A stretch of DNA of 64,000 bases from a virus (Duplodnaviria; Heunggongvirae; Uroviricota; Caudoviricetes): the IMG/VR virus record IMGVR_UViG_2541047879_000001; one strand, written 5' to 3'. A program made the position numbers and the translations under genes. Below, piece by piece: positions 16,087-59,802 of the stretch. Under the pieces are notes generated by a model. That model did no database searches. It saw only the letters and a list, made by a program, of their open reading frames with translations, and was not told the origin of the DNA. Position 1 is the first letter of the stretch. Every line of letters begins with the position of its first letter.

Positions 16087-17668
16087 CCAGCATCCCCTTC
16101 ATTTCCGCAGCGAACATGGCATCACTGAGCAGCGTCATCAGGCGGGAATCATCCATTTCACGATAAAGGGCAGGCAGGTCTGCCAGCGCATCCGCCAGCC
16201 CCCGCGTTCTGATGGCATCAATGACCGGCTCCAGTACCGGGTCGATGGCCTCCTGTAAGCGGCGGGCAGGCACCGCGTCCCCCATATCATCCAGTTCATC
16301 ACGCGGCGTGCTTTTCGCTTCCGGCAGTCTGGCTGACAGCGCCGTCTGCTCTGTTTTTTCCTGTTTTTCCGGTGGTGTTTCCCTGTCGGTCTGAGCCGGT
16401 TCATTGCCACTCTGACGGACACGGAATATGGCTTCACCGGGCGTGGGCTGCGGAATACCGGTCTGCTCCCGTATCCAGGGATCAGAAATATCCATCCCCG
16501 TACTGAGCTGCATCACCGCACTGGTGATTTTGGTGATATCACCTGGTTCTTTGGTCTGGAAGCAGATACGTGGCAGACGGCGGATATCAATAGTGTGCGT
16601 GGTGTTCAGGGCGTACAGCGGATACACCAGATCGCGGTTCAGGGTTGCAGCCAGCTGCCGTAAATCAGAATCCCTGATTTCCCGGCGCACCTCGTTATGC
16701 ACCTCACCCAGCGAGCGCGCGCCTTTGTCTCCGGCTTCCGTGGTCAGCGTGCCGCCGAGTATTGCTTTGGAGATGGAACGCTCCCCCCACGAAATCATGG
16801 TTTCAAATGGATCGGCCTGACCGTTTGCTGCCGCCTGAAATTCCAGCGACATCCCGGCCGGGATGATCCCGCCTGTACGTCGCCCGATATCCATCACCGC
16901 CCGCATCAGGGCGCTTTTCTGCTCCGGTGTTGCCCCGGACGGGTATTTCCCGACCTTCATCGGCAGTCCGTACACCTCCAGAAATTCGGCCAGATCGCGC
17001 ACGGAATAGTTTTTGAAAATGAACGGCCAGATAAGCGTCCTGACAAGCCCCGTTGCGCCACCGTAACCGGTCCGTGAACGTGACTGATGCACTATCCAGC
17101 CAAAAGGCTGAAACGCCACCCCGGCATGGCTGCCGTCACGCAGCCGCAGTTCGCTCAAATCATCCGGGTTAAGGCAGAAATGCCCGCTGTCACGCCAGCG
17201 GATGGCGCGGATGATGTGCATTTTACCGAGCATCCCGTGCTCAATTTCCATGCAGGAATAGCCCTTCAGGATGGCATCCGTGGCGTCAAACAGCATGGCA
17301 TCAAACCAGTCTGCGGAATGCAGATATTCGTCGAGCATTTCCGCGTCCTTTTTCTCATTCGCGCTGGCGTTCGGTGGCGGCTCAATACTCCATGGCACCC
17401 CCTGAATGGCAAGACGTCGCTTGCCCAGCTCCGCAAAAAGGTGGGTGTCCTTTTCTTCAATGTCAGCCGCCAGATCGGACTGGGCAATCAGGTCGCCACG
17501 TTCAGCCCCCCGAAGGCACTGCGCCGCCCGGTTCGGGGTGATACCCGAGGCGGGATGCTCAACATAACGGCTGGCAATCTGCGGAATATCCAGCGCGGTA
17601 CTCTGCATCTCCGGGTCAAAGGAGAGAGGTTTTCCGTCAAGATCAATTATGCGTCCCACTACCAGCAC
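16070..17668 (-). CDS. Portal protein (Mu gp29-like)
   Basis: 532-aa ORF overlapping terminase large subunit stop. Confidence 0.8.
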   Translation of the reverse strand: MLVVGRIIDLDGKPLSFDPEMQSTALDIPQIASRYVEHPASGITPNRAAQCLRGAERGDLIAQSDLAADIEEKDTHLFAELGKRRLAIQGVPWSIEPPPNASANEKKDAEMLDEYLHSADWFDAMLFDATDAILKGYSCMEIEHGMLGKMHIIRAIRWRDSGHFCLNPDDLSELRLRDGSHAGVAFQPFGWIVHQSRSRTGYGGATGLVRTLIWPFIFKNYSVRDLAEFLEVYGLPMKVGKYPSGATPEQKSALMRAVMDIGRRTGGIIPAGMSLEFQAAANGQADPFETMISWGERSISKAILGGTLTTEAGDKGARSLGEVHNEVRREIRDSDLRQLAATLNRDLVYPLYALNTTHTIDIRRLPRICFQTKEPGDITKITSAVMQLSTGMDISDPWIREQTGIPQPTPGEAIFRVRQSGNEPAQTDRETPPEKQEKTEQTALSARLPEAKSTPRDELDDMGDAVPARRLQEAIDPVLEPVIDAIRTRGLADALADLPALYREMDDSRLMTLLSDAMFAAEMKGMLDDTGD

Positions 17669-34735: not shown

Positions 34736-35971
34736 CTACGATAACCGCGCATTCAACATGGCTATCTGTTCGTCGTTCATGTCATCAATCCACATACCGT
34801 AAATTTCATACACCATCTGCGCAGTTTCATGCCCCATTTGGCTGGCTATAAATGCCGGGTTCGCTCCTGCCGTCAACAGCCAGCAGGCAAAAGTATGCCG
34901 CGTATGGTACGGATTACGGCGGCGAATACCAGCACGTTTTACTGCTGCATTCCACCTTGCCCCCAAACTGCTTACCGAGTAATAAGGTTTTTGTTTTCCG
35001 TTACACACCCTGGGCATGAAAACAAAATGCAGTTTTTGCTTTTCGGTTCTGCCGTACTCCCGATGATAAAAGGTGATTTCGCTTTTGCGATGATGCCCGG
35101 TCAGTTTGTATTGCTCCTTCAGTGCTTCAAGAGCAGGCTGCAGTAGTGTTACTGTTCGGATCCCGGCATTTGTTTTTGGGGGACCGAACATATCAAGTAT
35201 CGTCAGGTTTCTTCTGACATTCACTATTCCCTTTTCGAGATCCACATCCTCCCACGCCAGAGCTGCCAGTTCCCCGTGACGAAGTCCTGAGTAAACGGCA
35301 AATTTCCACAAGTTCTGGCTCTGTCCTTTTTCACTTTCCATTAATGCATTGAATTCTGTTTTAGATAACGGATCAGGCTTTATTCTGTTTCGCTGTAATT
35401 TTTTTACTCCTTCAAATGGTTTGGTTGATATAAATCCCGACTGATACGCAAAACGCAACAGCGAACAGAGCAGGGCGATATAGTTATCAACTGTGCGCAC
35501 GGTTCTTCCTTTTTTGTTGGATCTTGGATTATCCAGGTAAAGCGTTTCTCCATGCAGCAGTTCATTCCGGTAGTTTAAGATATCGCTATAACGAATATGT
35601 GATATCGGGGTACTTTCACAAATTATTATTCTGAGTGTTTTTAATTGTGATTTCGTTTTCTTCATTGTGTTTGTTGTTAACTCTGTCTCTTTAATTTTTG
35701 TCCAGATATCACAAAGCTCTCCGAACGTTTTTATGACTCTCGTTGTCACCATTTTTGCCCCAGTGCTGGACTGGGGAAAACGTCTTAAATACTCAAATTC
35801 ACCGGAGTTTATTTCATGAACTATCAGCGCTCTTAAATTTCCGGCCTTTTTAATATTACTGTTTGTAATCTCCCAGCCTTTTAATGTTTCCCGACATCGT
35901 TTTCCTCGAAACATGAACCAGATGCGAATGTATCTACCTCTAATCTCGACACCTGTTGGTAATTTAGACAT
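34736..35971 (-). CDS. intR: Tyrosine integrase (IntR-like)
   Basis: 411-aa protein with R...HxxR...Y catalytic region (HTRHTFACWLL...YGMW), adjacent to ttcA. Confidence 0.9.
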   Translation of the reverse strand: MSKLPTGVEIRGRYIRIWFMFRGKRCRETLKGWEITNSNIKKAGNLRALIVHEINSGEFEYLRRFPQSSTGAKMVTTRVIKTFGELCDIWTKIKETELTTNTMKKTKSQLKTLRIIICESTPISHIRYSDILNYRNELLHGETLYLDNPRSNKKGRTVRTVDNYIALLCSLLRFAYQSGFISTKPFEGVKKLQRNRIKPDPLSKTEFNALMESEKGQSQNLWKFAVYSGLRHGELAALAWEDVDLEKGIVNVRRNLTILDMFGPPKTNAGIRTVTLLQPALEALKEQYKLTGHHRKSEITFYHREYGRTEKQKLHFVFMPRVCNGKQKPYYSVSSLGARWNAAVKRAGIRRRNPYHTRHTFACWLLTAGANPAFIASQMGHETAQMVYEIYGMWIDDMNDEQIAMLNARLS

Positions 35972-45293: not shown

Positions 45294-46019
45294 ATGGAGA
45301 CCGTTTTTGACGCACTGAAAGCAATGGGAAAAGCCTCTTCCCAGGAAGTGGCAGCACGTCTGGGAATGACCCGGGATGAGGCGATTAACGAGCTGTGGAA
45401 ACTGAAGCGTCGTGGGGAAGCTGATAACAAGGGCCCGATGTGGTGGTTGACTCAAACCGACGAAAACGCATCTGTAGCACAGGCTTCTAAAGTGACAGCG
45501 CAAATGCTGATCGAGGCGATTGAACAGCATGGCCCTAAAGCGGCTGATGAACTTGCACTGATATTCAGAATTACTTCCCGCAGGGTGAACTCATCGCTGG
45601 CTATGGCCATCAGCAAAGGTCGTCTGATTCGCGTAAATCAGAACGGTAAATTTCGTTACTGCCTGCCGGACGGTAATTTACCAGCAGAGCCGAAAGTTGT
45701 ATCGGTAGTGAAAACACCTGGTAAAGGCTTTCCTCAGCCAGCCGGTGTTGCGTTACCAGTACAGGAAGCGGCAACACAGGAAGAAATTAAAACAGATACT
45801 GTGGGGGACATTGTGCAGTCACTACCATCGTTCACTGAAACGCGAGCCAATGACCTGATTATACCATCGCTGCAAATGGCAAACCGCGAACTGCGCCGGG
45901 CGAAAAGTTATGTCCAGAAGTGGGAGCGAGTCTGCGCCGCGCTGCGTGAGCTGAACAAGCACCAGGATATTGTCCGTCAGATTGTCGATTCCTCCAGTCG
46001 TATTGTGTCGGAAAAGTGA
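45294..46019 (+). CDS. Hypothetical double winged-helix protein
   Basis: 241-aa product from METVFDALKA...; start at internal ATG. Confidence 0.45.
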   Translation: METVFDALKAMGKASSQEVAARLGMTRDEAINELWKLKRRGEADNKGPMWWLTQTDENASVAQASKVTAQMLIEAIEQHGPKAADELALIFRITSRRVNSSLAMAISKGRLIRVNQNGKFRYCLPDGNLPAEPKVVSVVKTPGKGFPQPAGVALPVQEAATQEEIKTDTVGDIVQSLPSFTETRANDLIIPSLQMANRELRRAKSYVQKWERVCAALRELNKHQDIVRQIVDSSSRIVSEK

Positions 46020-46036
46020 TTCCTGGGGAGGGCTTA

Positions 46037-46458
46037 TGGCAAAAGTATTTACACAGGAAGAGCGAGAAAAAATTAAAGGGCAGATTGTTGATCTTGTACG
46101 CCAGAGCGGGCGAGAGACGTTACGACAACTGGAAGCTAAAACGGGGGCGACAAGATATCTGATAAGCGCTCTTGCTAGGGAGTTGGTTGCGAATGGTGAT
46201 GTATACAACTCTGGCTATGGGTTATTTCCGTCTGAGCAGGCACGTCAAGACTGGCAAAACGCCCGCAAAAAACTATCGAGGGCAAAGGTGAAGAAACCAG
46301 TTGTGGTTGATCTGGACCTTATTTGGTCATTACCAGACGGAGAAATACGTCGCTACGACAGGCGTCTGAACATAATTTGCCGTGAGTGCCGGAAGAGTGA
46401 AGTTATGCAGCGTGTATTAGCATTCTATCAGGGAAATGTTCGGTATTTATTGAAGTGA
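46037..46458 (+). CDS. Hypothetical protein
   Basis: 140-aa product from MAKVFTQEER... Confidence 0.45.
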
Positions 46459-46667
46459 CGAGATTAAAGACCATTAATTCATATGTGAATTGACAGTTTC
46501 ATGGCACAGGATACGGCTAGCGTGGTTGTCTGTTTTGTGCCAGGGGCGGGCCTAACTAAGTTCACACAACATTGATTATTGAAGATTAGGTCAGAAATAA
46601 ATAGGTTATTTTGATAATTTAGTTACGTTAGAATGCCGCAGTGTACAAAGTAAAAATGAGGAATAAT

Positions 46668-48029
46668 ATGACTCGGAGTGAAATAAACGTCTGGGATAAG
46701 AGACGAGGCACCAATAGTCATCGTGTGGAGGAGATTCGATCTGAAGCTCAGCACGACCTTTCTCGACTGATTCACTCGTCTGCTTTCAGACGATTGCAAT
46801 CCAAAACACAGGTTCTTGGTCTGGGTGAAAGTGATTTCTACCGCACACGACTGACTCATTCTATGGAAGTCGCACAAATCGGTTCAGGTCTTCTTGCTAA
46901 GCTGAAAATAAAATATAAAGGTAAAGAGCAAGAGCAATTTTTACCAGATAACGATCTTATGCAGGCAGTATGTCTCGCACATGATATTGGACATCCTCCA
47001 TTTGGTCACGGCGGTGAGGTAGCTCTTAACTACTGTATGCAGGATTACGGTGGTTTTGAAGGAAACGGTCAGACACTTCGCATTCTCTCGAAACTAGATA
47101 AGTATACCGTTGAACACGGACTCGATCCTACACGCAGACTTCTGCTAGGCATACTGAAATATCCGGTTAAATACTCGGATCTAGTGGTTACAAAAGACAG
47201 AATCCCGGCCACTATCGGATCGCCGAACTGGCTCTTTAAGTCATCTGATTTTAAACCTCCAAAATGCTATCTAGATTCAGAATGCGATGTTGTAGAATTT
47301 GCTCTTTCACCATTTACTGAACAGGATCGGAGGCTTTTTACTTCCGTTGAAGATGGTCAAACTAAATCCGATCATAAAAAAGCTTCTTATAAAGCTCTCG
47401 ATACAACCATCATGGATCTTGCCGATGAAATTTCGTATTCGCTGCACGATTTGGAGGATGCTATTTCTCTCGGAATGGTGACACGAGAAATGTGGATGGA
47501 GCATTTCAGTGAATATGAAACCCTATTTACTAACTGCCATGGAGAAACATTTTCCGCAACATGTGAATCTGTCGCGGATAGCCTTTTTGGTGAAAGTTAC
47601 AAGAGAAAAGAGTGCATCGGGATGCTGGTTCACCTGATGATTACAAGCGTTGAGCTTATTACAAAGAATCCAGCATTCGAATGTGGCATGCTCAAATATA
47701 ATGCGGTCCTTCCGGAAGCGGTCGAAGCACTACGGTTGAAAATTTTCAAACTGGTCAAAAATAAAGTAATTAAGCATGAAAATGTACAGCAGCTTGAATT
47801 CAAGGGACAAAAGTTGATTGTTGAGCTTTTCGGTGTGCTGGCTAACGATCCGTGTCGGTTTCTACCGGCATCAACGAGGGAAATTTACGAGCGGCAGACT
47901 AGCTTGGACGAGAAGGCTGGTATGCGAGTCATTTGCGACTATGTTTCAGGGATGACTGATGACTATGCAACAAAGCTTTATGAGAAGATCCTTATTCCAC
48001 GCAAAGGGTCTATTTTTGACCATCTCTAA
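46668..48029 (+). CDS. Dgt-family dGTPase (HD-domain dNTP triphosphohydrolase); candidate anti-phage nucleotide-depletion enzyme
   Basis: Motifs shared with E. coli Dgt: FRRLQSKTQV, RTRLTHSMEVAQIG, HDIGHPPFGHGGE, EGNGQTLRIL, DLADEISYSLHDLEDA, YVSGMTDDYA; RBS gagga before ATG 46668; AT-rich island. Confidence 0.85.
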   Translation: MTRSEINVWDKRRGTNSHRVEEIRSEAQHDLSRLIHSSAFRRLQSKTQVLGLGESDFYRTRLTHSMEVAQIGSGLLAKLKIKYKGKEQEQFLPDNDLMQAVCLAHDIGHPPFGHGGEVALNYCMQDYGGFEGNGQTLRILSKLDKYTVEHGLDPTRRLLLGILKYPVKYSDLVVTKDRIPATIGSPNWLFKSSDFKPPKCYLDSECDVVEFALSPFTEQDRRLFTSVEDGQTKSDHKKASYKALDTTIMDLADEISYSLHDLEDAISLGMVTREMWMEHFSEYETLFTNCHGETFSATCESVADSLFGESYKRKECIGMLVHLMITSVELITKNPAFECGMLKYNAVLPEAVEALRLKIFKLVKNKVIKHENVQQLEFKGQKLIVELFGVLANDPCRFLPASTREIYERQTSLDEKAGMRVICDYVSGMTDDYATKLYEKILIPRKGSIFDHL

Positions 48030-48090
48030 TGCGGCAAGAATGATGCTCTGAGTTCAATTGACCTATAAACATTAACCAAGGCATCTACCA

Positions 48091-48110
48091 GGGGGATATC
48101 AAATCCCCCC
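48091..48110 (+). terminator. Hairpin downstream of dGTPase gene
   Basis: gggggat-atcaaa-atccccc stem-loop followed by a T-containing tract. Confidence 0.4.
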
Positions 48111-48439
48111 ATTCTGAATTTGTTCGTGCAGAATCGGTGAACGTTCTCATCTGAGCGTTAAACGCCAATAATCGTTGATCTACATTGATCATTAATACAC
48201 CTTAATACCATTAGCGTCTTACTCCGTTATGAGAACAAACGCGAACTGACCTGCCCCCAGTATTAGTGACCTTCAGCTACGGTAACTTGTCCGCTTCGTG
48301 CCAGAAGCGGACATCCATAGAGAAATAAGCGATCAGTTCTTAAATTTGTTGTGATTTTTTGATTTTTTTGTATTCGCAAAGGGATTTGTGTTGGTTGTAT
48401 AATTACCTAATATTCATACAGTTGAATGGGAGATGTGGG

Positions 48440-49333
48440 ATGAAGTTCTCGTACAGACATGGTTTTGATCCTGAGTATAATAAAAAGCCGATACGGGAAG
48501 ATGCTCCAGAGTGGCTTCGCTCTTTATTTTTTGTAACTGTCCTCGATAATTTTTTGTACATTGATGGTGATAGCCGCATTACGAATGATGAGAACAAGCC
48601 GTTGGGTATTAAGGCTTTGATCGAGCGACTTTGCGCAGAGAATGGTCAAGAAACAGATCATGAGGATTTCGATTCATGGTACTGCTATGATGCTTTGAAA
48701 GCGCGTTTGCAACATATGCGTTGGTTTCAATTTTATGATGCTGTTGAGATTATCGGAGATCTATTAAGAAAAAGAGATGTAGAAAGAGGCCATACTTGGG
48801 GTAAGAAGGCATTAGAAGACATTACTTTTACATCATATCGTCAGAAATTGAACGAGTTATTCGCATCTCGAAATATTGACTGGAAAATGAATTCTGCTGG
48901 TAGGTTAGAAACACCACTACCAAATGAATTAGAACAAAAAATCGATGAAACTAACAACTTATTGCAAGACCAGTTTGAACCTGCAAGGAGGCACTATGTG
49001 AAAGCCCGGGCTTTTGCATTAGGTGCGCATAAGGATCCAGAAAATTCCATAAAAGAATCAATAAGTGCAATAGAAAGCATGTGTCGGACTTATTATCCTT
49101 CAGCCTCAACCTTGGGCGATGTATTAAAACTGATGAGAAAAGAAAACACTATCTCACCTATGCTTTTAACGGTGATAGAGAAATTTTACGCTTATACAAA
49201 TGCAGAGCCAGCAGTAAGACATGGTAGCAACAAGGTTTCTTCTGTCTTGGAATACGATGCTGAATTCGTGTTGCATATATCAGCAGCATTTATTAGAACA
49301 ATAATACAAAGAAAAGCTGTTTTGGATAACTAA
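48440..49333 (+). CDS. Uncharacterised protein (297 aa), no family recognised
   Basis: ATG with RBS gggag; -10-like tataat about 40 nt upstream; AT-rich; convergent with MBL-fold gene. Confidence 0.5.
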   Translation: MKFSYRHGFDPEYNKKPIREDAPEWLRSLFFVTVLDNFLYIDGDSRITNDENKPLGIKALIERLCAENGQETDHEDFDSWYCYDALKARLQHMRWFQFYDAVEIIGDLLRKRDVERGHTWGKKALEDITFTSYRQKLNELFASRNIDWKMNSAGRLETPLPNELEQKIDETNNLLQDQFEPARRHYVKARAFALGAHKDPENSIKESISAIESMCRTYYPSASTLGDVLKLMRKENTISPMLLTVIEKFYAYTNAEPAVRHGSNKVSSVLEYDAEFVLHISAAFIRTIIQRKAVLDN

Positions 49334-49419
49334 GTCAGACTTACAGCCAACTGACTGTCTCTTATTATTCAAAACATAATAATGTTAGGTCCGCTTATCG
49401 CACATCAGGGACAACCATA

Positions 49420-49450
49420 CTCAAATCTCCCACATTGCAGGAGATTTGAG
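49420..49450. terminator. Perfect 11-bp inverted repeat between convergent genes
   Basis: ctcaaatctcc-cacattgca-ggagatttgag between stop of 48440-49333 and stop of 49574-50800. Confidence 0.4.
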
Positions 49451-49573
49451 TGTGAACACGTCACCGTGGAACAAAGACTGTATCATCGGTCAAAAAAGAC
49501 CTGGTTATCTAGCAAAAACTTTTAACATACCAACAAACTTAATTTATTTAAATGCTATTAATACAACTAATGT

Positions 49574-50800
49574 TTAAAATATATATTTTATATCAACCCA
49601 ATTTTTAGCATTATTGTCAACTAAAGTAACGCTATGTCCATGACTTGAATTTATAGCATCGATTACTGATTGTGATGGGTGTCCATGTGAATGACCATCC
49701 GACTGAGCTATAAACAAAACATTATCAAAATCCGCAATTATTTTTTGATTGAAATTTAATTCCGAACCATGATGAGGTAATGTCATCACCCTTACCGTTT
49801 TAATCACTTTTGAATAGAATTCAGCCCATTTATTATAATACAATGATGTATTAAGCTTTGAGTCACCTGTTAATAAAACAGATCTAATTCCTTTATCTCT
49901 ATCAAAGAGAAAATGTCGCTCAACCCGACTATTTCTAAAACTAAACCACTCACGAGAAGGCTCATTAACAATTTTCATCTCAGCTTCTTGATTATTAATA
50001 ATCAAGAGATTGATTGATATTACATTATGATCGCCAGCAAGTTTTAAATAACACTCGCGTAATTTCTTTCTTTCCCCCGTGCTAGTTAATATTTTAAGCA
50101 TTTTTTTCTTACTTAACTCAGTAAAACCATTTTCTATTAACTGCTGACTGAAAATTTCAATTTTCTTACGTGAACGGGGCGGTATCCAAGAAATAAATGA
50201 CATTAGTGTATCAGTTTTGTTTTCCCCAATCCTTTTAACCAACCAACGGTTACATTCAACATCTCCTTTGGAGTCAGATATTTTCATTGGTAAGCTTACA
50301 GCGCTATCCTTAATGTTTTCACTATTAAATATAGGAGGGTCAAAATTATCATCAATATCACAGGGGTAAAGCAAAGATATATCTGCCTCAGGCAACCTTG
50401 ATTTTATCCATTTGACAGGATCAATGAGAAATTCCATAAAAAGACCTGACGTAGAATTAGAGCATAGCTCCGATGCAATTAAGTAATAGCTATCATGGAT
50501 ATCTAGGTATGGTAATACAACCTTGCGTATTTTGTTATCTACAAGCTGACATAAATGGTCAAATCCATTTATATGGTCTGAATCCAAATGAGAGATGTAT
50601 ACCACATCAATATATTTCTCATCAATATTAAAGAGAGATTTAGCCACATCCATCTCCCTACGCAACGCATTTAATTGGTCACTTCCGCAGTCATACACAT
50701 AACTGTAAAGCAAACTACCATCCCTTCCCCTCAGTCCGCCTAAACTAAATCCACCCTGGCCAACGGGAAACAATCTTTTATGAAATACTTCTCCGCTCAT
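49574..50800 (-). CDS. Metallo-beta-lactamase-fold hydrolase, ComEC-type MBL signature (putative nuclease)
   Basis: HxHxDH-like motif YISHLDSDHINGFDH, later LPHHGS and DGHSHGHPS metal-ligand motifs; RBS aaggat before ATG; AT-rich. Confidence 0.7.
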   Translation of the reverse strand: MSGEVFHKRLFPVGQGGFSLGGLRGRDGSLLYSYVYDCGSDQLNALRREMDVAKSLFNIDEKYIDVVYISHLDSDHINGFDHLCQLVDNKIRKVVLPYLDIHDSYYLIASELCSNSTSGLFMEFLIDPVKWIKSRLPEADISLLYPCDIDDNFDPPIFNSENIKDSAVSLPMKISDSKGDVECNRWLVKRIGENKTDTLMSFISWIPPRSRKKIEIFSQQLIENGFTELSKKKMLKILTSTGERKKLRECYLKLAGDHNVISINLLIINNQEAEMKIVNEPSREWFSFRNSRVERHFLFDRDKGIRSVLLTGDSKLNTSLYYNKWAEFYSKVIKTVRVMTLPHHGSELNFNQKIIADFDNVLFIAQSDGHSHGHPSQSVIDAINSSHGHSVTLVDNNAKNWVDIKYIF

Positions 50801-51514
50801 ATATCCTTCTTACACCCTAACGTGATCATAAAATTGTCTTAAAGTTAAGTTTAAAGCTAAAAAGTCACAGCTCATTCCAACTCGTGAGCAATAGGAATGT
50901 ATATTCAATCAGTTAGAGGATCAACCCGATTTTCTCTAATGAGATTTCGCAACGCAGTACGAACAGCAGCTACTTCTGCCATCTCATTAACAACCACACT
51001 GGACTACAATCCCCTAAGTTCTACAGACTGTAACCATATCCTCTTCACAGAAATAATCTGATTAATGCTGAAGGTCATCTTTCTCGACGCGAATGTATGA
51101 CATAACAACCTCAGTTAATTATCTTTCGATAGAAAAATACCTTCACAAAAGGTTTAAGCAACCCATCACAAGACAACACGCTAAGCTTGCCTTGTAAGCG
51201 TCCTGCTTAACCGAACAGTTCGCTTTCAGAGGATCTCCGGAGAACAGCTCCGATGCCTTATAAGGCCAATGCTCGCTCCTCGCTCACTGCGGACCTAAGG
51301 TTTGGTCAGCTTGTTCGCACTCTGCCAAAAGCGGGAGTTACTCCCATTCGGTGTTAATCAATGTAGAGCAGATCAATCAACGACAAAGAAAATGAGAGGC
51401 ATATCACTACTCATATGAAAATTATTGTAGTAAAGTGAGCCGTAAGTTCATCATTTATAAATCATATAGCATATATGTTATATCAATTTTAATTTAAATG
51501 GCAGAATAATTACC

Positions 51515-52219
51515 ATGGAAAAAATTAAAACTCCTTGTCCATATTGTAAAGGTGAAAAAAATTGCCACATAATAGGCCATAAAAAAAGAGAATGGAGTGA
51601 GGATGATGGGGGCAACTATTTTTGGGCTGAAAGTGAATACAAATTATTAGAGTGTATGGGGTGCGACGGAATATTTACATATATTAAATCCCGTCACAGT
51701 GAAGATTACGACATTGAAAGAGATGAGTCAGGCTATGATTGTATGGTATATAACTATCATATATCAACATATCCCACTCAAGAGCAAGAAGAGATTAGAC
51801 CAACTTGGTTTGGTGAGACATTAAACAAAGATCGTCAGCTGTATGTAATAATGAACGAAATGTACATCGCATTTCAAAATAAATCATTCATTTTAGCGGC
51901 GATTGGACTTAGAACTATTTTTGACAGAACAGTTGAGGTTCTAAATATTCATCCAGGATATACATTAGGCCAGAAGGTTGACATTCTTAAAGAGGAAGGT
52001 TTTATTGGGGAAACAGAAAGGAGCCAACTTAAAATTGTAACCGAAGCTGGCAACTCAGCTGCACACAGGACATGGGCACCGAACGAAACTGAATTTAAAT
52101 CGCTTTTGGTAATTATAGAAAATTTTGTAATGCGAACAATACTAAAAAATGAGGATATATTTAAGATTACAGAAAAATTACCTGCGAAATATCCAAGACC
52201 TCCCAAAAAGCAAGAATAA
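51515..52219 (+). CDS. Zinc-ribbon plus DUF4145-like (HEPN-like?) protein; candidate abortive-infection effector
   Basis: N-terminal CPYC...(36 aa)...CMGC four-Cys ribbon; C-terminal AAIGLRTIFDRTVEVL...AGNSAAHRTW region recalled as DUF4145-like; weak RBS. Confidence 0.5.
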   Translation: MEKIKTPCPYCKGEKNCHIIGHKKREWSEDDGGNYFWAESEYKLLECMGCDGIFTYIKSRHSEDYDIERDESGYDCMVYNYHISTYPTQEQEEIRPTWFGETLNKDRQLYVIMNEMYIAFQNKSFILAAIGLRTIFDRTVEVLNIHPGYTLGQKVDILKEEGFIGETERSQLKIVTEAGNSAAHRTWAPNETEFKSLLVIIENFVMRTILKNEDIFKITEKLPAKYPRPPKKQE

Positions 52220-52657
52220 TGTACGTAAGTGTAAATAGAGCTAAGAGATTATATATTGACTCTGGTTATCTCTATTAGCACATGCTTTTTGTAATGCCTT
52301 AACTGATTATTTAAACTCCTGTCAGCTTTTCGCTCAAAGCGGACTAAAGTGTTGGCTTGTGACTGACTTAGCGCATTTAAGGAAGTGGTGGTGGTGACGG
52401 GGTGTTGTGTCCCATTTCCACAGAATAAATCAGAGAAACTATAGCGGCTGTAATGGCAATCTATGGTCTTGCTATTGCTCTTATGGATCACCTTTCTGAT
52501 TGATTTCATATTGGCGAGGTAACGGGAGTTAAGTAGAATAGCTGCGGGTGCTTGAGGCTGTCTGCCTCGGGCATGAACACCAAAGGCAGATAGAGAAAAG
52601 CCCCAGTTAACATTACGCGTCCGGCAAGACGCTTAACATTAATCTGAGGCCACATCT

Positions 52658-52906
52658 ATGCTTTGCATACGTAGATTAGCCTCTTACCGACCAAAAGGTC
52701 AAGGAGAAGCAGGCTATGAAGCAGCAAAAGGCGATGTTAATCACCCTGATCGTCATCTGTTTAACCGTTATAGTGACGGTACTGGTAACGAGGAAAGACC
52801 TCTGCGAGGTACGAATCCGAACCGACCAGACGGAGGTCGCTGTCTTCACAGCTTACGAACTTGGGGAGTAAGAGGACCAGCGGGGAGAAATCCCCGCAAC
52901 CTCTGA
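52658..52906 (+). CDS. Possible mok-like overlapping reading frame of the hok locus
   Basis: ORF starting 58 nt upstream of hok and overlapping it in another frame, as in hok/sok/mok loci; positional inference. Confidence 0.3.
   Translation: MLCIRRLASYRPKGQGEAGYEAAKGDVNHPDRHLFNRYSDGTGNEERPLRGTNPNRPDGGRCLHSLRTWGVRGPAGRNPRNL
52716..52871 (+). CDS. hok: Hok-family membrane toxin (HokD/RelF-like), type I toxin
   Basis: 51-aa ORF MKQQKAMLITLIVICLTVIVTVLVTRKDLCEVRIRTDQTEVAVFTAYELGE found by reading (below track cutoff). Confidence 0.8.
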   Translation: MKQQKAMLITLIVICLTVIVTVLVTRKDLCEVRIRTDQTEVAVFTAYELGE

Positions 52907-53334
52907 TGTATTATGCATCCTCAACGCAGCCACAGTTAACCTGATTGGCGGGTTTACTTCATCTGTAAATATTTTTATAAAAATAATGCCCACGCACAGC
53001 ATAAAACAAAAAGTATTACAGATAAAAAAGGAACGTAATGTACAGATTTGTTGTTTTCCATATTTACTCACCTTAATATGATTAACCCTGATAGGGCTGT
53101 TATTTCAGCGGTTTTCAAATGAGATATTATGGTGATCTGACAAATTTGCATAACATTAAAATTTAATTTGTTTAACCGCTTTTAATAATAAGCGTTGTTT
53201 GTATCCCAGCAATCTGTTGTTTGGTTTTTATTCCATTAAGGTGGGGGCTTTACACTGGAACCAGTTTATTTATACTTTATACGTCAGCCTGAACAACTGG
53301 CATCTGCTGCACTGCGCCATCGAGAGATTGAGAA

Positions 53335-53934
53335 ATGGCGCATATACAACTGGTCAAACAAACTTCTTCTGGTTTACTTCTCCCGGCGACGCCGGAGAGT
53401 TGCGATTTTCTGCATCAAATCAAAATAGGTGAGTGGATACACGCAGACTTTAAGCGTGTGCGTAACTACGCATTCCACAAGCGTTTTTTCAAACTCCTGC
53501 AACTGGGATTCGATTACTGGACTCCGGTCGGTGGGGCGATCACGCCTCGCGAACGAGAACTGCTGTCTGGTTTCGTTGATTACCTGTGCGAATCAGTTGG
53601 TCGGGAACACACGCCAGCCCTGAGTGATGCCGCAGAGCAATACCTTAACACCGTTGCGACTCGTAGAACCCGGGATACGGCGTTGCTAAAGTCGTTTGAG
53701 GCTTTCCGCGAGTGGGTAACCATTCAGGCCGGATTTTACACCGAGCATATTTATCCGGACGGTAGCCGTGGGCGTCGGGCAAAATCCATCGCTTTTGCGA
53801 ATATGGACGAAGTCGAGTTTCAGCAGGTTTATAAATCTGTACTGAATGTGCTGTGGAACTGGATTCTGTTCCGTAAATTCTCCTCTCAGGAGGAAGTTGA
53901 AAATGTGGCCGCACAACTACTGGAGTTTGCGTAA
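53335..53934 (+). CDS. Lambdoid nin-region protein (DUF1367-like)
   Basis: 199-aa ORF translationally coupled to the next two genes upstream of Q; family recalled. Confidence 0.5.
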   Translation: MAHIQLVKQTSSGLLLPATPESCDFLHQIKIGEWIHADFKRVRNYAFHKRFFKLLQLGFDYWTPVGGAITPRERELLSGFVDYLCESVGREHTPALSDAAEQYLNTVATRRTRDTALLKSFEAFREWVTIQAGFYTEHIYPDGSRGRRAKSIAFANMDEVEFQQVYKSVLNVLWNWILFRKFSSQEEVENVAAQLLEFA

Positions 53935-54224
53935 TGGTGAATTTACGTAAAGCGGCTAAAGGCCAGATGTGCCAGATCAGAATCCCTGGCTACTGCAATC
54001 ACAATCCCGAAACCTCTGTGCTGGCGCATTACAGGCTGGCGGGGACGTGCGGAACAGCGACAAAACCACACGATATGCAGGCGGCGATAGCCTGTAGCTC
54101 ATGCCACGATCTAATCGACGGGCGGGTAAAAACCAGCGATTACACCAAAGAAGAATTGCGCCTGATGCATGCTGAAGGGGTTTTTCGCACACAAGAAATC
54201 TGGAGAAAGAAAGGTCATTTATGA
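53934..54224 (+). CDS. Small Cys-rich nin-region protein (YbcO-like)
   Basis: 96 aa with CQIRIPGYCNH ... CSSCH cysteines; position just upstream of Q. Confidence 0.5.
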   Translation: MVNLRKAAKGQMCQIRIPGYCNHNPETSVLAHYRLAGTCGTATKPHDMQAAIACSSCHDLIDGRVKTSDYTKEELRLMHAEGVFRTQEIWRKKGHL

Positions 54225-54763
54225 TTTACCCAACGAATACAGGAAAAAGCGGAGAACACCTTCGCCTCACCACGCTGGAAAGTGTCTGGATTCAGGGAAA
54301 ACTACGTATGTGGGGGCGCTGGTCGTATATTGGCGGTGGCAGGTCAGGGAATATGTTCAATCAGTTGTTGGCATCCAAAAAACTGACGAAAACAGCCATT
54401 AATGAAGCCCTGCGCAGAATGAAAAAAGCGGGAATAGAGAAAGCTGAGCTGGAAGCGTTTTTGCGAGAGATGATCAACGGCAAGCAAAAGAGCTGGCTGG
54501 CGCATTGTACTGATGCAGAGGCGTTATGTATTGATCGAGTCATAAGTGAGGTGCTGGCAGAGCATCCAGGATTGATTTGCATTCTCCGGCAACGCTATGA
54601 AGGGCGGGGGATGACTAAGCGCAAAATGGCTGAATTGCTAAATGATGCACACCCAGAGTGGTGTTTTAGCACATGCGAAAAACGGATTGCTAATTGGTTA
54701 GCTGTTGCTGAGTATGCCCTATATATTCCCATGCGTGAATCATTTGCTGAGAAAATGGCTTGA
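54221..54763 (+). CDS. Late-gene antiterminator Q (phage 21/82 type)
   Basis: 180-aa protein immediately upstream of terminator hairpin and lysis cassette; C-terminal sigma-region-4-like HTH (LRQRYEGRGMTKRKMAELL). Confidence 0.6.
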   Translation: MIYPTNTGKSGEHLRLTTLESVWIQGKLRMWGRWSYIGGGRSGNMFNQLLASKKLTKTAINEALRRMKKAGIEKAELEAFLREMINGKQKSWLAHCTDAEALCIDRVISEVLAEHPGLICILRQRYEGRGMTKRKMAELLNDAHPEWCFSTCEKRIANWLAVAEYALYIPMRESFAEKMA

Positions 54764-55807: not shown

Positions 55808-56236
55808 ATGGGTTTTCGTAGCGCATCAATTCTTACGTTGATTATTAGTGGGATTATTATCGGGTGCACTGATGCTGTATCGACAAATTATCATGACCGT
55901 ACATCATATTACTCCGATAAAGCAATAGAGACACAGTATGTGAGTTCATCTGAACGTACTTCTGATGTTAGTGAGGATATCCGTCTGTATGCCCATCAAA
56001 TCAAGAGCGCCATCGAAAAACAGTTCGGGGATGCGAGTAAGTATTCAGGAAAAGAGTGTACACTGAGAATGCATATGGCCCCGAATGGCCTTCTACTGGA
56101 GGTTAAAAGAGAAAGTGGAGACCTCGATTTATGTCGTGAAGCGATGAATGCGATAAAGAATGCTGATATACCTGCCCCCCCTTCGCCGGAAGTATATAAA
56201 GTATTTCAAAATGGGGTGCTGGATTTTAAACCCTGA
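55808..56236 (+). CDS. Lipoprotein with TolA C-terminal (domain III)-like fold
   Basis: Lipobox IIGC; C-terminal YAHQIKSAIEKQFGDASKYSGKECTLRMHMAPNGLLLEVKRESGDLDLCREAMNAIKNADIPAPPSPEVYKVFQNGVLDFKP aligns with E. coli TolA domain III. Confidence 0.7.
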   Translation: MGFRSASILTLIISGIIIGCTDAVSTNYHDRTSYYSDKAIETQYVSSSERTSDVSEDIRLYAHQIKSAIEKQFGDASKYSGKECTLRMHMAPNGLLLEVKRESGDLDLCREAMNAIKNADIPAPPSPEVYKVFQNGVLDFKP

Positions 56237-56386: not shown

Positions 56387-56782
56387 GTGGGATTAAAGAA
56401 AATCGTTATGTTGACTTTTTGGGTCGGTTTTGTTGCGGGATGCACACCTTTACACCCTTCAGATTGCCACAAAACTACTGCTACAGGTAGTTGCAGTTCA
56501 GGACGCTGGGATGATCAGGATGAATGGGGGGCGCAAGCGCGGGGAATCAGAGCTGCAATTAATGCCAAACTTGATGAGCCGCATAACTGGAAAGGGAAAA
56601 AATGCAGGTTGCATATGGAATTCTCTCAGGATGGCACGGCGTTAAAAATATCTACCAGTAACGGTGATAAAGCCTATTGCGAAGCGATAAAGTCCGCAGC
56701 TCATAAAGCCAAATTTCCGGCCTTCAACAATCCGGAAGTCTACAGAGATTTTCAGAAATCTGGCTTTGACATGCGAGGTTAG
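56387..56782 (+). CDS. Second TolA-domain-III-like lipoprotein (diverged paralogue)
   Basis: Lipobox VAGC; same GK.C.L.M....G..L......GD...C.A...A..KA.FP....PEVY..FQ pattern. Confidence 0.6.
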   Translation: MGLKKIVMLTFWVGFVAGCTPLHPSDCHKTTATGSCSSGRWDDQDEWGAQARGIRAAINAKLDEPHNWKGKKCRLHMEFSQDGTALKISTSNGDKAYCEAIKSAAHKAKFPAFNNPEVYRDFQKSGFDMRG

Positions 56783-57746: not shown

Positions 57747-58207
57747 ACAGAGTAACCGCGATTATCTCCGCTCTGGTTATCTGCATCGTCGTCTGCCTGT
57801 CATGGGGTGTTAATCATTACCGTGATAACGCCATCGCCTACAAAGAACAGCGCGACAAAAATGCCAGAGAACTGAAGCTGGCGAACGCGGCAATTACTGA
57901 CATGCAGATGCGTCAGCGTGATGTTGCTGCGCTCGATGCAAAATACACGAAGGAGTTAGCTGATGCGAAAGCTGAAAATGATGTTCTGCGTGATGATGTT
58001 GCCGCTGGTCGTCGTCGGTTGCACATCAAAGCAGTCTGTCAGTCAGTGCGTGAAGCCACCACCGCCTCCGGCGTGGATAATGCAGCCTCCCCCCGACTGG
58101 CAGACACCGCTGAACGGGATTATTTCACCCTCCGGGAACGACTGGTAATGATGCAGGCCCAACTTGAAGGTGCTCAGCAATACATAACCGAGCAGTGTTT
58201 AAAGTAA
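57743..58207 (+). CDS. i-spanin Rz
   Basis: N-terminal TM helix then coiled coil; ATGA overlap with endolysin. Confidence 0.8.
57963..58148 (+). CDS. o-spanin Rz1 (embedded in Rz, +1 frame)
   Basis: 61-aa lipoprotein, lipobox VVGC, proline-rich mature part, fully nested within Rz. Confidence 0.8.
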
Positions 58208-58344
58208 AATCTTAACTACAATATGATTCATTTTGATGATTGTTTCATAAGGAACAGTGAAGTAAGATCTAAGAGGAGTTAAATTTTATACAGTATAATC
58301 ATAATATTGCAGCAAGGTGGTTATAATTGAAAGAATATTTAGAT

Positions 58345-59802
58345 ATGAATACATCTCATGTAAGAGTTGTTACTCATATGTGTGGGTTCCTGGTTTGGCT
58401 CTATAGTCTTTCAATGTTGCCACCAATGGTTGTAGCATTGTTTTATAAAGAAAAAAGCCTGTTCGTTTTCTTTATAACTTTCGTTATATTTTTTTGCATT
58501 GGTGGCGGAGCGTGGTATACAACTAAGAAATCTGGCATTCAATTACGTACCCGTGATGGGTTTATTATAATTGTAATGTTTTGGATTTTGTTTTCTGTTA
58601 TTAGTGCATTCCCTTTATGGATTGACTCAGAACTTAATTTAACGTTCATTGATGCTCTGTTTGAAGGGGTTTCTGGAATAACAACAACAGGAGCAACTGT
58701 AATTGATGATGTTAGTTCATTACCTCGGGCATATTTGTACTATCGGTCACAGTTAAATTTTATAGGTGGTTTAGGAGTTATTGTTCTGGCGGTTGCTGTA
58801 TTGCCATTATTGGGTATTGGTGGTGCAAAGCTTTATCAGTCAGAAATGCCGGGGCCATTTAAGGATGACAAACTCACTCCCCGCCTGGCCGATACGTCAC
58901 GGACACTGTGGATAACTTATTCTTTATTAGGTATTGCTTGTATTGTCTGTTATAGACTTGCAGGAATGCCTTTGTTTGATGCTATTTGTCACGGGATTTC
59001 CACAGTTTCGCTTGGTGGTTTCTCAACTCATAGCGAGAGTATCGGATATTTTAATAACTATTTGGTTGAGCTGGTGGCTGGTTCTTTTTCCCTGCTATCG
59101 GCTTTCAACTTCACTCTTTGGTATATTGTTATTAGCAGGAAAACGATAAAACCTTTAATCAGAGATATTGAACTTCGTTTCTTTCTGTTAATAGCCTTAG
59201 GGGTGATCATTGTTACCTCTTTCCAGGTCTGGCATATAGGTATGTATGACTTGCATGGAAGTTTTATTCATTCGTTTTTTCTTGCCAGCTCCATGCTCAC
59301 TGATAATGGTTTAGCTACGCAGGATTATGCAAGTTGGCCCACGCACACGATAGTGTTTTTGCTGTTGTCAAGTTTCTTTGGGGGATGTATAGGTTCAACT
59401 TGTGGTGGAATTAAGTCACTTCGATTTCTTATACTTTTCAAACAAAGCAAACACGAGATAAATCAGCTTTCTCATCCCAGAGCGTTGTTGAGTGTAAATG
59501 TAGGAGGGAAGATAGTTACAGATCGTGTAATGAGGTCTGTATGGAGTTTCTTTTTTCTTTATACTCTCTTCACGGTGTTTTTTATACTGGTGTTAAATGG
59601 TATGGGATATGATTTTCTTACATCATTTGCAACAGTGGCTGCATGTATTAATAATATGGGATTAGGTTTTGGGGCTACTGCATCGTCATTCGGAGTGCTT
59701 AATGACATTGCAAAATGTTTAATGTGCATAGCTATGATTCTTGGTCGCCTTGAAATTTATCCTGTTATTATATTGTTTTCAGGTTTTTTTTGGCGCTCCT
59801 AA
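58345..59802 (+). CDS. trkG: Potassium uptake protein TrkG (TrkH family)
   Basis: Polytopic membrane protein with repeated GGxGG-type selectivity-filter-like segments; AT-rich; Rac location. Confidence 0.85.
   Translation: MNTSHVRVVTHMCGFLVWLYSLSMLPPMVVALFYKEKSLFVFFITFVIFFCIGGGAWYTTKKSGIQLRTRDGFIIIVMFWILFSVISAFPLWIDSELNLTFIDALFEGVSGITTTGATVIDDVSSLPRAYLYYRSQLNFIGGLGVIVLAVAVLPLLGIGGAKLYQSEMPGPFKDDKLTPRLADTSRTLWITYSLLGIACIVCYRLAGMPLFDAICHGISTVSLGGFSTHSESIGYFNNYLVELVAGSFSLLSAFNFTLWYIVISRKTIKPLIRDIELRFFLLIALGVIIVTSFQVWHIGMYDLHGSFIHSFFLASSMLTDNGLATQDYASWPTHTIVFLLLSSFFGGCIGSTCGGIKSLRFLILFKQSKHEINQLSHPRALLSVNVGGKIVTDRVMRSVWSFFFLYTLFTVFFILVLNGMGYDFLTSFATVAACINNMGLGFGATASSFGVLNDIAKCLMCIAMILGRLEIYPVIILFSGFFWRS

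Follow-up and report, generated by a model that had tools for sequence, protein, structure and literature searches.

A mosaic of separately mobile single-gene cassettes, probably anti-phage, between lygF and hok of a Rac-like prophage

Prophage hotspots are a productive source of new bacterial immune systems. The defence hotspots of P2 and P4 are the established precedent (Rousset et al. 2022, PMC9122126), and lambdoid prophages place accessory genes between their replication and antirepressor genes, as with HepS/RemAIN in Gifsy-1 (PMC13043305). Here we analyse a variable slot in a stretch of 64,000 nucleotides from IMG/VR virus record IMGVR_UViG_2541047879_000001 (hereinafter the window). The slot lies in a Rac-like prophage between lygF, a DUF977 gene, and the hok/mok/sok toxin-antitoxin locus; no description of this lygF-hok interval was found in the literature searched. 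Specifically, it contains a dGTPase gene (cassette A), a gene for a protein with an AbiJ-NTD4 domain (cassette B), a gene for a metallo-beta-lactamase (MBL) fold protein (cassette C), and a gene for a zinc-ribbon/DUF4145 protein (cassette D), and cassettes B and C are separated by what is left of a tyrosine-recombinase gene, the integrase scar (Table 1). The segment is a mosaic of four separately mobile single-gene cassettes and this scar. It is probably recombination-hotspot cargo of Rac-like and other lambdoid prophages, made up of four independently acquired defence cassettes.

The closest described relatives of the cargo proteins come from several defence families. Literature is available for the anti-phage dGTPase family (PMC12265719, PMC13519002). 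AbiJ-type N-terminal domains have been proposed to sense phage components and to control a HEPN RNase (Anantharaman et al. 2013, PMC3710099). The protease-gated defence MBL nucleases include HamM, Avs1a, and CanC (PMC12799240, bioRxiv 10.1101/2025.09.03.673762, PMC12642450), and in such related nucleases the enzyme is made as a proenzyme that a partner protease opens (PMC12799240). RAZR, or PD-T7-4, a zinc-finger RNase that is ring-activated, cleaves RNA once it has assembled on phage ring proteins (PMC13017515).

The window contains E. coli chromosome (ycjS to ttcA) followed by the prophage, and matches the chromosome of strain WGI31CT at 99.9% identity. The cargo is located between the replication module (ydaU-like, ydaV/DnaC-like, ydaW/DUF1627, and lygF/DUF977) and the DUF1367, YbcO, and Q genes. 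An original prediction, made from the letters of the window, had proposed an AT-rich island at 46460-52900, and the shift in base composition is real: GC content is 0.390 over that interval, 0.505 in the replication genes of the left flank, 0.491 from DUF1367 to Q, and 0.457 in the rest of the prophage. The open reading frames that it named are all in place, and the long non-coding spacers that it described account for ~29% of the island. The segment stands and its borders have to be moved, as homology to other Rac-like prophages stops at 46437-46557 and restarts at 52439-52537 (blastn); the comparatively defined variable segment is 46537-52438 (5.9 kb), with a GC content of 0.383. The lowest-GC 5.9-kb stretch of the 64-kb window (0.381) starts at 46401, and only 0.7% of the 5.9-kb windows within the 64 kb are as GC-poor as the island. 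GC at third codon positions (GC3) is 0.28-0.39 for the four cargo genes and 0.43-0.62 for the flanking phage genes. The same prophage is AT-rich elsewhere too, namely at 40-43 kb, 55-56 kb, and 58-60 kb (GC 0.34-0.42). Thus, composition alone does not mark the island out, and the comparative data do.

The complete island is present in 9 of 5,426 complete E. coli genomes, with 99.8-99.9% identity, and two more genomes carry versions shortened by IS3 deletions. A larger query that includes the flanking phage genes matches 4,942 genomes. The corresponding interval of reference Rac (MN652886) is ~1.5 kb long and contains five small hypothetical genes. The idea that the island replaces most of the nin region has to be dropped, because DUF1367, YbcO, and Q are retained here and in all compared Rac-like prophages, and reference Rac holds only that ~1.5 kb in between. 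Nor is hok part of the cargo, as had been supposed. The hok/mok/sok locus occupies the same position, with 90-99% identity, in L002, L003, L004, L005, L007, and L012; because it is found at the same place in every relative examined, and homology resumes within it or at its edge, it is a conserved flank. On the other side, the lygF protein is 84-91% identical in L002-L005 and L012, and its gene is immediately left of variable cargo each time.

Across E. coli genomes, at least 10 different cargo sets are found between lygF and hok (Table 1). Validated defence systems are among the occupants, namely the dGTPase here and Menshen NsnABC and PD-T7-1 in other genomes. The interval therefore combines conserved flanks and varying cargo with validated defence systems in that cargo, and the block described here is rare, compositionally foreign cargo at a genuine prophage hotspot. 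This agrees with the original proposal of accessory, defence-type cargo at a variable lambdoid site. Another occupant, in E. coli isolate 362, encodes a YejK-like protein; the YejK nucleoid-associated domain has recently been reported as a validated defence domain (PMC13092281). The cargo of isolate 362 also holds an extra Q-like gene.

The internal structure of the segment is not that of the single island first proposed. Three of the cassettes (dGTPase, MBL, and zinc-ribbon/DUF4145) also occur alone in other mobile elements, and GC content declines stepwise over cassettes A to D (0.42, 0.38, 0.36, and 0.35). The AbiJ-like and MBL genes are together in no locus besides the island (tblastn, 72 loci). 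An obligate pair of the two, which the earlier reading had suggested as an 'unknown/MBL pair', was rejected, because the MBL gene occurs without an AbiJ-like gene in every other locus examined. Each cassette comes with non-coding flanks and a low GC content of its own.

Judged by sequence, cassette A is a known defence type, an anti-phage dGTPase, in agreement with the Dgt-type dGTPase initially proposed. Its protein scores 560 bits with the NCBIfam model antiphage_dGTPase (NF041026), above the curated cut-off of 400, carries Pfam HD and HD_assoc domains, and matches the PADLOC dGTPase model (8.7e-145) and PDB entry 9p8w (9.5e-152). The longest open reading frame begins at a GTG codon at 46641. 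E. coli 1303 carries the same 1.71-kb cassette, 97% identical, in a genomic island that is unrelated, where its neighbours are a short integrase gene, a type I restriction-modification system, and DarTG. Anti-phage dGTPase was reportedly described by Tal et al. in 2022. The cassette A protein reaches the score of that family, has the same HD and HD-associated domains, is close to solved dGTPase-like structures, and shows no notable difference. It would deplete dGTP during infection, the mechanism established for the family.

The cassette B protein matches the PADLOC candidate PDC-S32 over residues 1-291 (1.6e-33) and Pfam AbiJ_NTD4 with 34.4 bits, at a cut-off of 34. Its family comprises 128 homologues of ~293 residues and is common in gamma-proteobacteria; in Dickeya, relatives are carried by a conjugative element, and in Klebsiella they belong to a small chromosomal islet. 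The protein itself has no significant Abi_C match in Pfam, and the C-terminal HEPN assignment is below significance. Among the matches listed, 4 of 120 homologues have PF14355, which we take to be the Abi_C/AbiJ HEPN model, in the precomputed Pfam column. The pairs R183/H185 and R260/H261 are conserved in the family, for which the canonical Rx4-6H spacing is not established. Cassette B thus resembles the AbiJ family and PDC-S32 in its AbiJ-NTD4 N-terminus, in being a single-gene module on mobile elements, and in having some homologues that match the Abi_C HEPN model. PDC-S32 is a computational candidate only, and no mention of it was found in the literature searched. Going by family architecture, the N-terminal domain would sense a phage component, which would release the C-terminal HEPN-type RNase.

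The integrase scar that follows cassette B contains a 15-nt inverted repeat (49416-49454) and shares 90-92% identity with the beginning of a 603-bp gene for a 'site-specific integrase'. Among the matches listed, ~790 of 800 genomes that match the island query match the scar segment alone. In L012 the parent gene sits beside PD-T7-1 within the lygF-hok hotspot, and in E. coli 1303 (L006) its place is directly upstream of the dGTPase cassette. The full 200-residue parent protein matches Pfam Phage_integrase. By manual translation, the parent frame seems to be open upstream of its GTG start, as would be expected of the 3' remnant of a longer integrase gene. The small integrase was considered as an active cassette recombinase and rejected, since it has a catalytic domain only and just 115 nt of it are left here. 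The scar may mark how cargo entered the site.

The cassette C protein has a Pfam Lactamase_B match. Its AlphaFold model (pLDDT 85, pTM 0.89) finds the beta-lactamase-like domain of ComEC (9ic4; E 6e-10, probability 1.0) as its best structural match in the PDB, followed by RNase Z and CPSF73. The MBL motif residues (SHLD-DH, DHN, GD, LPHHGS, and HP) are invariant or nearly so across 44 homologues, to 24% identity, with H71, D75, H76, D313, H343, H344, and H374 invariant. Codon positions 1 and 2 are more conserved (0.89-0.97) than position 3 (0.77-0.94). The protein is ~140 residues longer than the ComEC core. It has weak local matches to the Avs1a, LmuA, and reverse transcriptase-associated MBL models, and a few homologues carry a precomputed match to PF23023, a family that could not be identified. 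In terms of sequence, it matches no named defence system. The fold and the metal-site motifs are those of a ComEC-type metal-dependent nuclease, which would probably be latent until infection; we infer DNase activity, gating, and a trigger.

The close relatives of the MBL gene are stand-alone genes at classic moron positions. Specifically, the cassette is found alone in Enterobacter at a prophage end beside umuDC, after tail-fibre genes; in a Proteus prophage, where it lies downstream of Q; in two P2-like prophages, where ogr is its neighbour; and in the cargo region of a CP4-like island. A relative is again beside umuDC on a short metagenome contig. Distant relatives, mostly from alpha-proteobacteria, are located in defence islands among restriction-modification, MADS, PDC-S11, and integrase genes, and many defence-system components are their neighbours (a count made without background control). 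Subsets of these distant homologues adjoin SMC/LmuB-like proteins, PDC-S11, or a 663-residue AAA-type ATPase. A conserved partner was rejected by neighbour clustering, with the most-shared neighbour in at most 6 of 38 loci; only 4-6 of 145 neighbours of distant homologues match the LmuB or SMC_N models, and trypsin families are not among the 25 commonest Pfam families of the 145 neighbours. Gilliamella homologues (33% identity) are preceded by an abutting gene for a 562-residue protein (L013:1143-4148 and L072:5312-8305), which has no Pfam or PADLOC match; this arrangement may be a two-gene variant of the module.

A leader of ~490 nt precedes the MBL gene and is 75-88% identical across five unrelated insertion contexts (the window, L075, L077, L069, and L070), while the downstream flank is mostly unrelated, and is so in all comparisons with the window. 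The leader has no Rfam match, and its RNAalifold covariation term is ~0. A small open reading frame was also rejected, as the sole shared one is broken by one-nucleotide indels. Because leader identity (0.75-0.96) is about that of third codon positions and covariation is lacking, the leader is not taken to indicate a function; what stands is only that it moves together with the MBL gene. The cassette C protein resembles HamM, Avs1a, and CanC in its ComEC-like MBL fold with insertions relative to the ComEC core, its intact metal-binding motifs, and its defence contexts. Unlike them, it is encoded by a stand-alone gene with a conserved leader and no adjacent trypsin- or caspase-like protease, and unlike Lamassu (LmuA and LmuB), it has no adjacent LmuB/SMC-like ATPase in the island of the window.

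The cassette D protein combines an N-terminal Cys4 zinc ribbon (C47 never varies, and 101-102 of 103 family members have C8, C11, and C50) with a C-terminal DUF4145/HEPN fold. H184 and R133 are invariant in the family, and R185 is nearly so. An exhaustive profile search yields 2,722 cluster representatives, most of those listed being ~230 residues long. In a P2-like prophage the cassette is found alone, with tail-fibre assembly genes on one side and sheath genes on the other, at the Z/fun hotspot of P2; it recurs beside pinE in another prophage, in an integrative and conjugative element, and on a Yersinia plasmid. It is like RAZR in being a single protein with this architecture on mobile elements, and the size is similar (234 residues here; RAZR residue numbering runs to at least 184). 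Unlike RAZR, which has R146/H154, it lacks that arginine and has R133 and R185 instead, and the beta-rich N-terminal part of its model is longer, ~85 residues. By analogy with RAZR, binding of the zinc-ribbon domain to an assembly of phage protein would switch on the HEPN RNase and stop translation.

The cassettes are best read as independent abortive-infection-type modules: an established defence (cassette A), a listed candidate (cassette B), and two that are unlisted (cassettes C and D). Each gene would most likely protect the lysogen from other phages. Turnover of the cargo would most likely run via homologous recombination within the conserved flanks, together with illegitimate events, of which the integrase scar and the IS3-mediated deletions would be traces.

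Several results weigh against this reading. For three of the four genes we infer the defence role. The MBL protein is far under the family cut-offs of Avs1a (31 versus 420 bits) and 6A-MBL (23.7 versus 220 bits), and membership of Avs1a, 6A-MBL, or LmuA is ruled out by such scores; it has no ATPase partner here, and there is no protease gene in the island or beside the Enterobacterales homologues. The cassette D protein has no PADLOC match at E <= 10, and none of 103 family members matches a PADLOC model below E 0.001, where PADLOC holds models of PD-T7-1 and PD-T7-5 and, as is assumed, of PD-T7-4; two weak matches within the family are to unrelated models. The canonical HEPN arginine, expected eight residues before H184, is replaced by T, I, V, A, or L in 103/103 members, so RNase activity of the protein is not assured. 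A PDB-sequence profile search found nothing, and, given the missing matches and the missing arginine, we regard cassette D as RAZR-like in design and place it outside the RAZR family. In 50,697 phage records (tblastn, E <= 1e-3), neither the MBL gene nor the zinc-ribbon/DUF4145 gene was found. Promoter-like and terminator-like sites are no commoner in the island than in shuffled sequence. Att-like repeats (direct or inverted, and shared 9-mers, within 60 nt of the eight junctions) are at chance level only, and the mechanism of exchange described above is therefore an expectation.

The uncharacterised cargo could instead be silenced, decaying DNA, counter-defence in the form of an Apyc1-like MBL phosphodiesterase, or a set of prophage-stabilising toxins. 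A GC content as low as 0.35-0.38 is typical of H-NS-silenced DNA; the hok/sok addiction module adjoins the island, cyclic-nucleotide phosphodiesterases exist among MBL folds, and IS3 deletions have eroded the island in two genomes. We consider this unlikely, as all four open reading frames are intact, homologues retain their catalytic motifs over wide divergence, and the first two codon positions of the MBL gene are far more conserved than the third. Moreover, in structure the MBL protein comes closest to nucleases acting on nucleic acids, defence-system components lie near its distant homologues (again without background control), and known defence systems occupy the same hotspot in other genomes. 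That the genes are conserved core genes of the phage lineage with ordinary composition is hardly conceivable. Their position between phage genes fits this idea and nothing else does, whereas the island is found in nine genomes and the query with flanking phage genes in thousands, reference Rac has unrelated small genes at the interval, and GC3 sets cargo and flanks apart. The comparison thus favours the original prediction on the point by which it could have been overturned.

A single cooperating system, for example with the MBL protein as effector of the zinc-ribbon/HEPN sensor or of the AbiJ-like protein, seems to us quite improbable. The four genes do occur together in all nine island-bearing genomes at near identity, the MBL and zinc-ribbon/DUF4145 genes are divergent around a 714-nt spacer, and distant MBL homologues do pair with ATPases. 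On a Rhizobium beringeri plasmid (L036:7482-10778), an MBL homologue directly precedes a 408-residue open reading frame, whose C-terminal 225 residues are 29% identical to the zinc-ribbon/DUF4145 protein (1e-21). This is the only side-by-side case of the two seen outside the island, and it keeps cooperation alive at low probability. Against it, the dGTPase, MBL, and zinc-ribbon/DUF4145 genes are each found alone, with their own flanks, in unrelated elements; AbiJ-like homologues also occur without the other three genes, and the other MBL loci all lack the AbiJ-like gene; at most 6 of the 38 MBL loci share a neighbour; and the integrase scar separates cassettes B and C. Four independently acquired cassettes remain the probable explanation.

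On the right flank, both the Hok open reading frame and the sok antisense RNA are present, as in a type I hok/sok module. The Pfam matches further right are DUF1367 (6.4e-98), YbcO (5.1e-45), and DUF1133 (2.5e-107). Between hok and the DUF1367 gene is an AT-rich spacer of 379 nt (52956-53334; GC 0.335). The antirepressor gene rem is absent from it and is present there in reference Rac and other lambdoid prophages. Downstream of Q are two small proteins annotated with a TolA C-terminal domain (55808-56236 and 56387-56782), followed by lysis genes and then trkG (58115-59572). The two proteins look like additional cargo of the prophage and may mimic TolA, with an effect on the entry of phages or colicins. 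The chromosomal part of the window has a short annotated pseudogene fragment of QueH, epoxyqueuosine reductase, at 16923-17015.

Table 1. Features of the window and occupants of the lygF-hok interval in other genomes (CDS, coding sequence)
Feature	Position	Strand	Details
Rac-like prophage	starts at intR (34736-35971), continues beyond terminase genes		
lygF/DUF977, conserved left flank	45970..46458	+	annotated start 46036; Pfam DUF977 4.3e-30
Cassette A, anti-phage dGTPase (by sequence)	46537..48247	+	CDS 46668-48029; ~130 nt upstream, 218 nt downstream
Cassette B, AbiJ-NTD4 protein, 297 residues	48248..49386	+	CDS 48440-49333
Tyrosine-recombinase gene scar, 115 nt	49387..49501	+	65 nt upstream sequence and first 50 nt of the open reading frame
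Cassette C, stand-alone ComEC-type MBL-fold putative nuclease, 408 residues	49502..51296	-	CDS 49574-50800; leader 50801-51296
Cassette D, zinc-ribbon + DUF4145/HEPN protein, 234 residues	51317..52344	+	CDS 51515-52219
hok/mok/sok type I toxin-antitoxin, conserved right flank	52439..52955	+	GC 0.487
hok CDS	52716-52871	+	Pfam HOK_GEF 5.3e-21, 74 bits
sok	52546-52721		Rfam RF01794, 105 bits versus gathering score 59
DUF1367, YbcO (DUF1364), DUF1133/Q antiterminator	53335..54763	+	retained nin/Q-side phage genes
Occupant elsewhere: Menshen NsnABC			PADLOC E down to 3.5e-123
Occupant elsewhere: PD-T7-1, 200-residue tyrosine recombinase, unknown genes	L012		PD-T7-1 PADLOC 7e-157
Occupant elsewhere: DUF262 and TPR proteins			DUF262 from annotation
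Occupant elsewhere: SIR2 and amidohydrolase			annotation
Occupant elsewhere: ATP-dependent nuclease and Dcm			annotation
Occupant elsewhere: zeta toxin			annotation
Occupant elsewhere: RelA/SpoT protein			annotation
Occupant elsewhere: QueH			recurrent in other E. coli prophages (H133, H137, H153)
Occupant elsewhere: only small phage ORFs (open reading frames)			e.g. reference Rac
Occupant in E. coli isolate 362: YejK-like nucleoid-associated protein (NA37) and overlapping 477-residue unknown partner	L004:3669-6132		

The lygF-hok interval already holds the validated systems dGTPase, Menshen, and PD-T7-1, and the MBL and RAZR-like genes are reasonable defence candidates. We tentatively propose, while regarding it as somewhat doubtful, that the MBL gene with its leader is a self-contained anti-phage nuclease that works without protease or ATPase, and that the zinc-ribbon/DUF4145 protein represents a second RAZR-like lineage, with a non-canonical HEPN active site of R133, H184, and R185. 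If this proposal is right, the interval would be a good place to search for new systems, on a par with the P2/P4 hotspots. A stand-alone ComEC-like MBL nuclease would make one ask what silences a DNase that lacks a protease gate like that of the related defence nucleases, and a RAZR-like protein without the canonical HEPN arginine would bear on the generality of activation by assembly on a phage ring. If neither gene protects against phage, the region is ordinary prophage cargo.

As a site, the lygF-hok interval is like the P2/P4 hotspots and the lambdoid accessory slot in being strain-variable, in lying between conserved phage genes, in including validated defences, and in holding AT-rich cargo of self-contained cassettes. 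Unlike the P2/P4 hotspots and the Gifsy-1 slot, it is flanked by lygF/DUF977 and hok/sok of Rac-like phages, and here four modules are stacked in a single slot.

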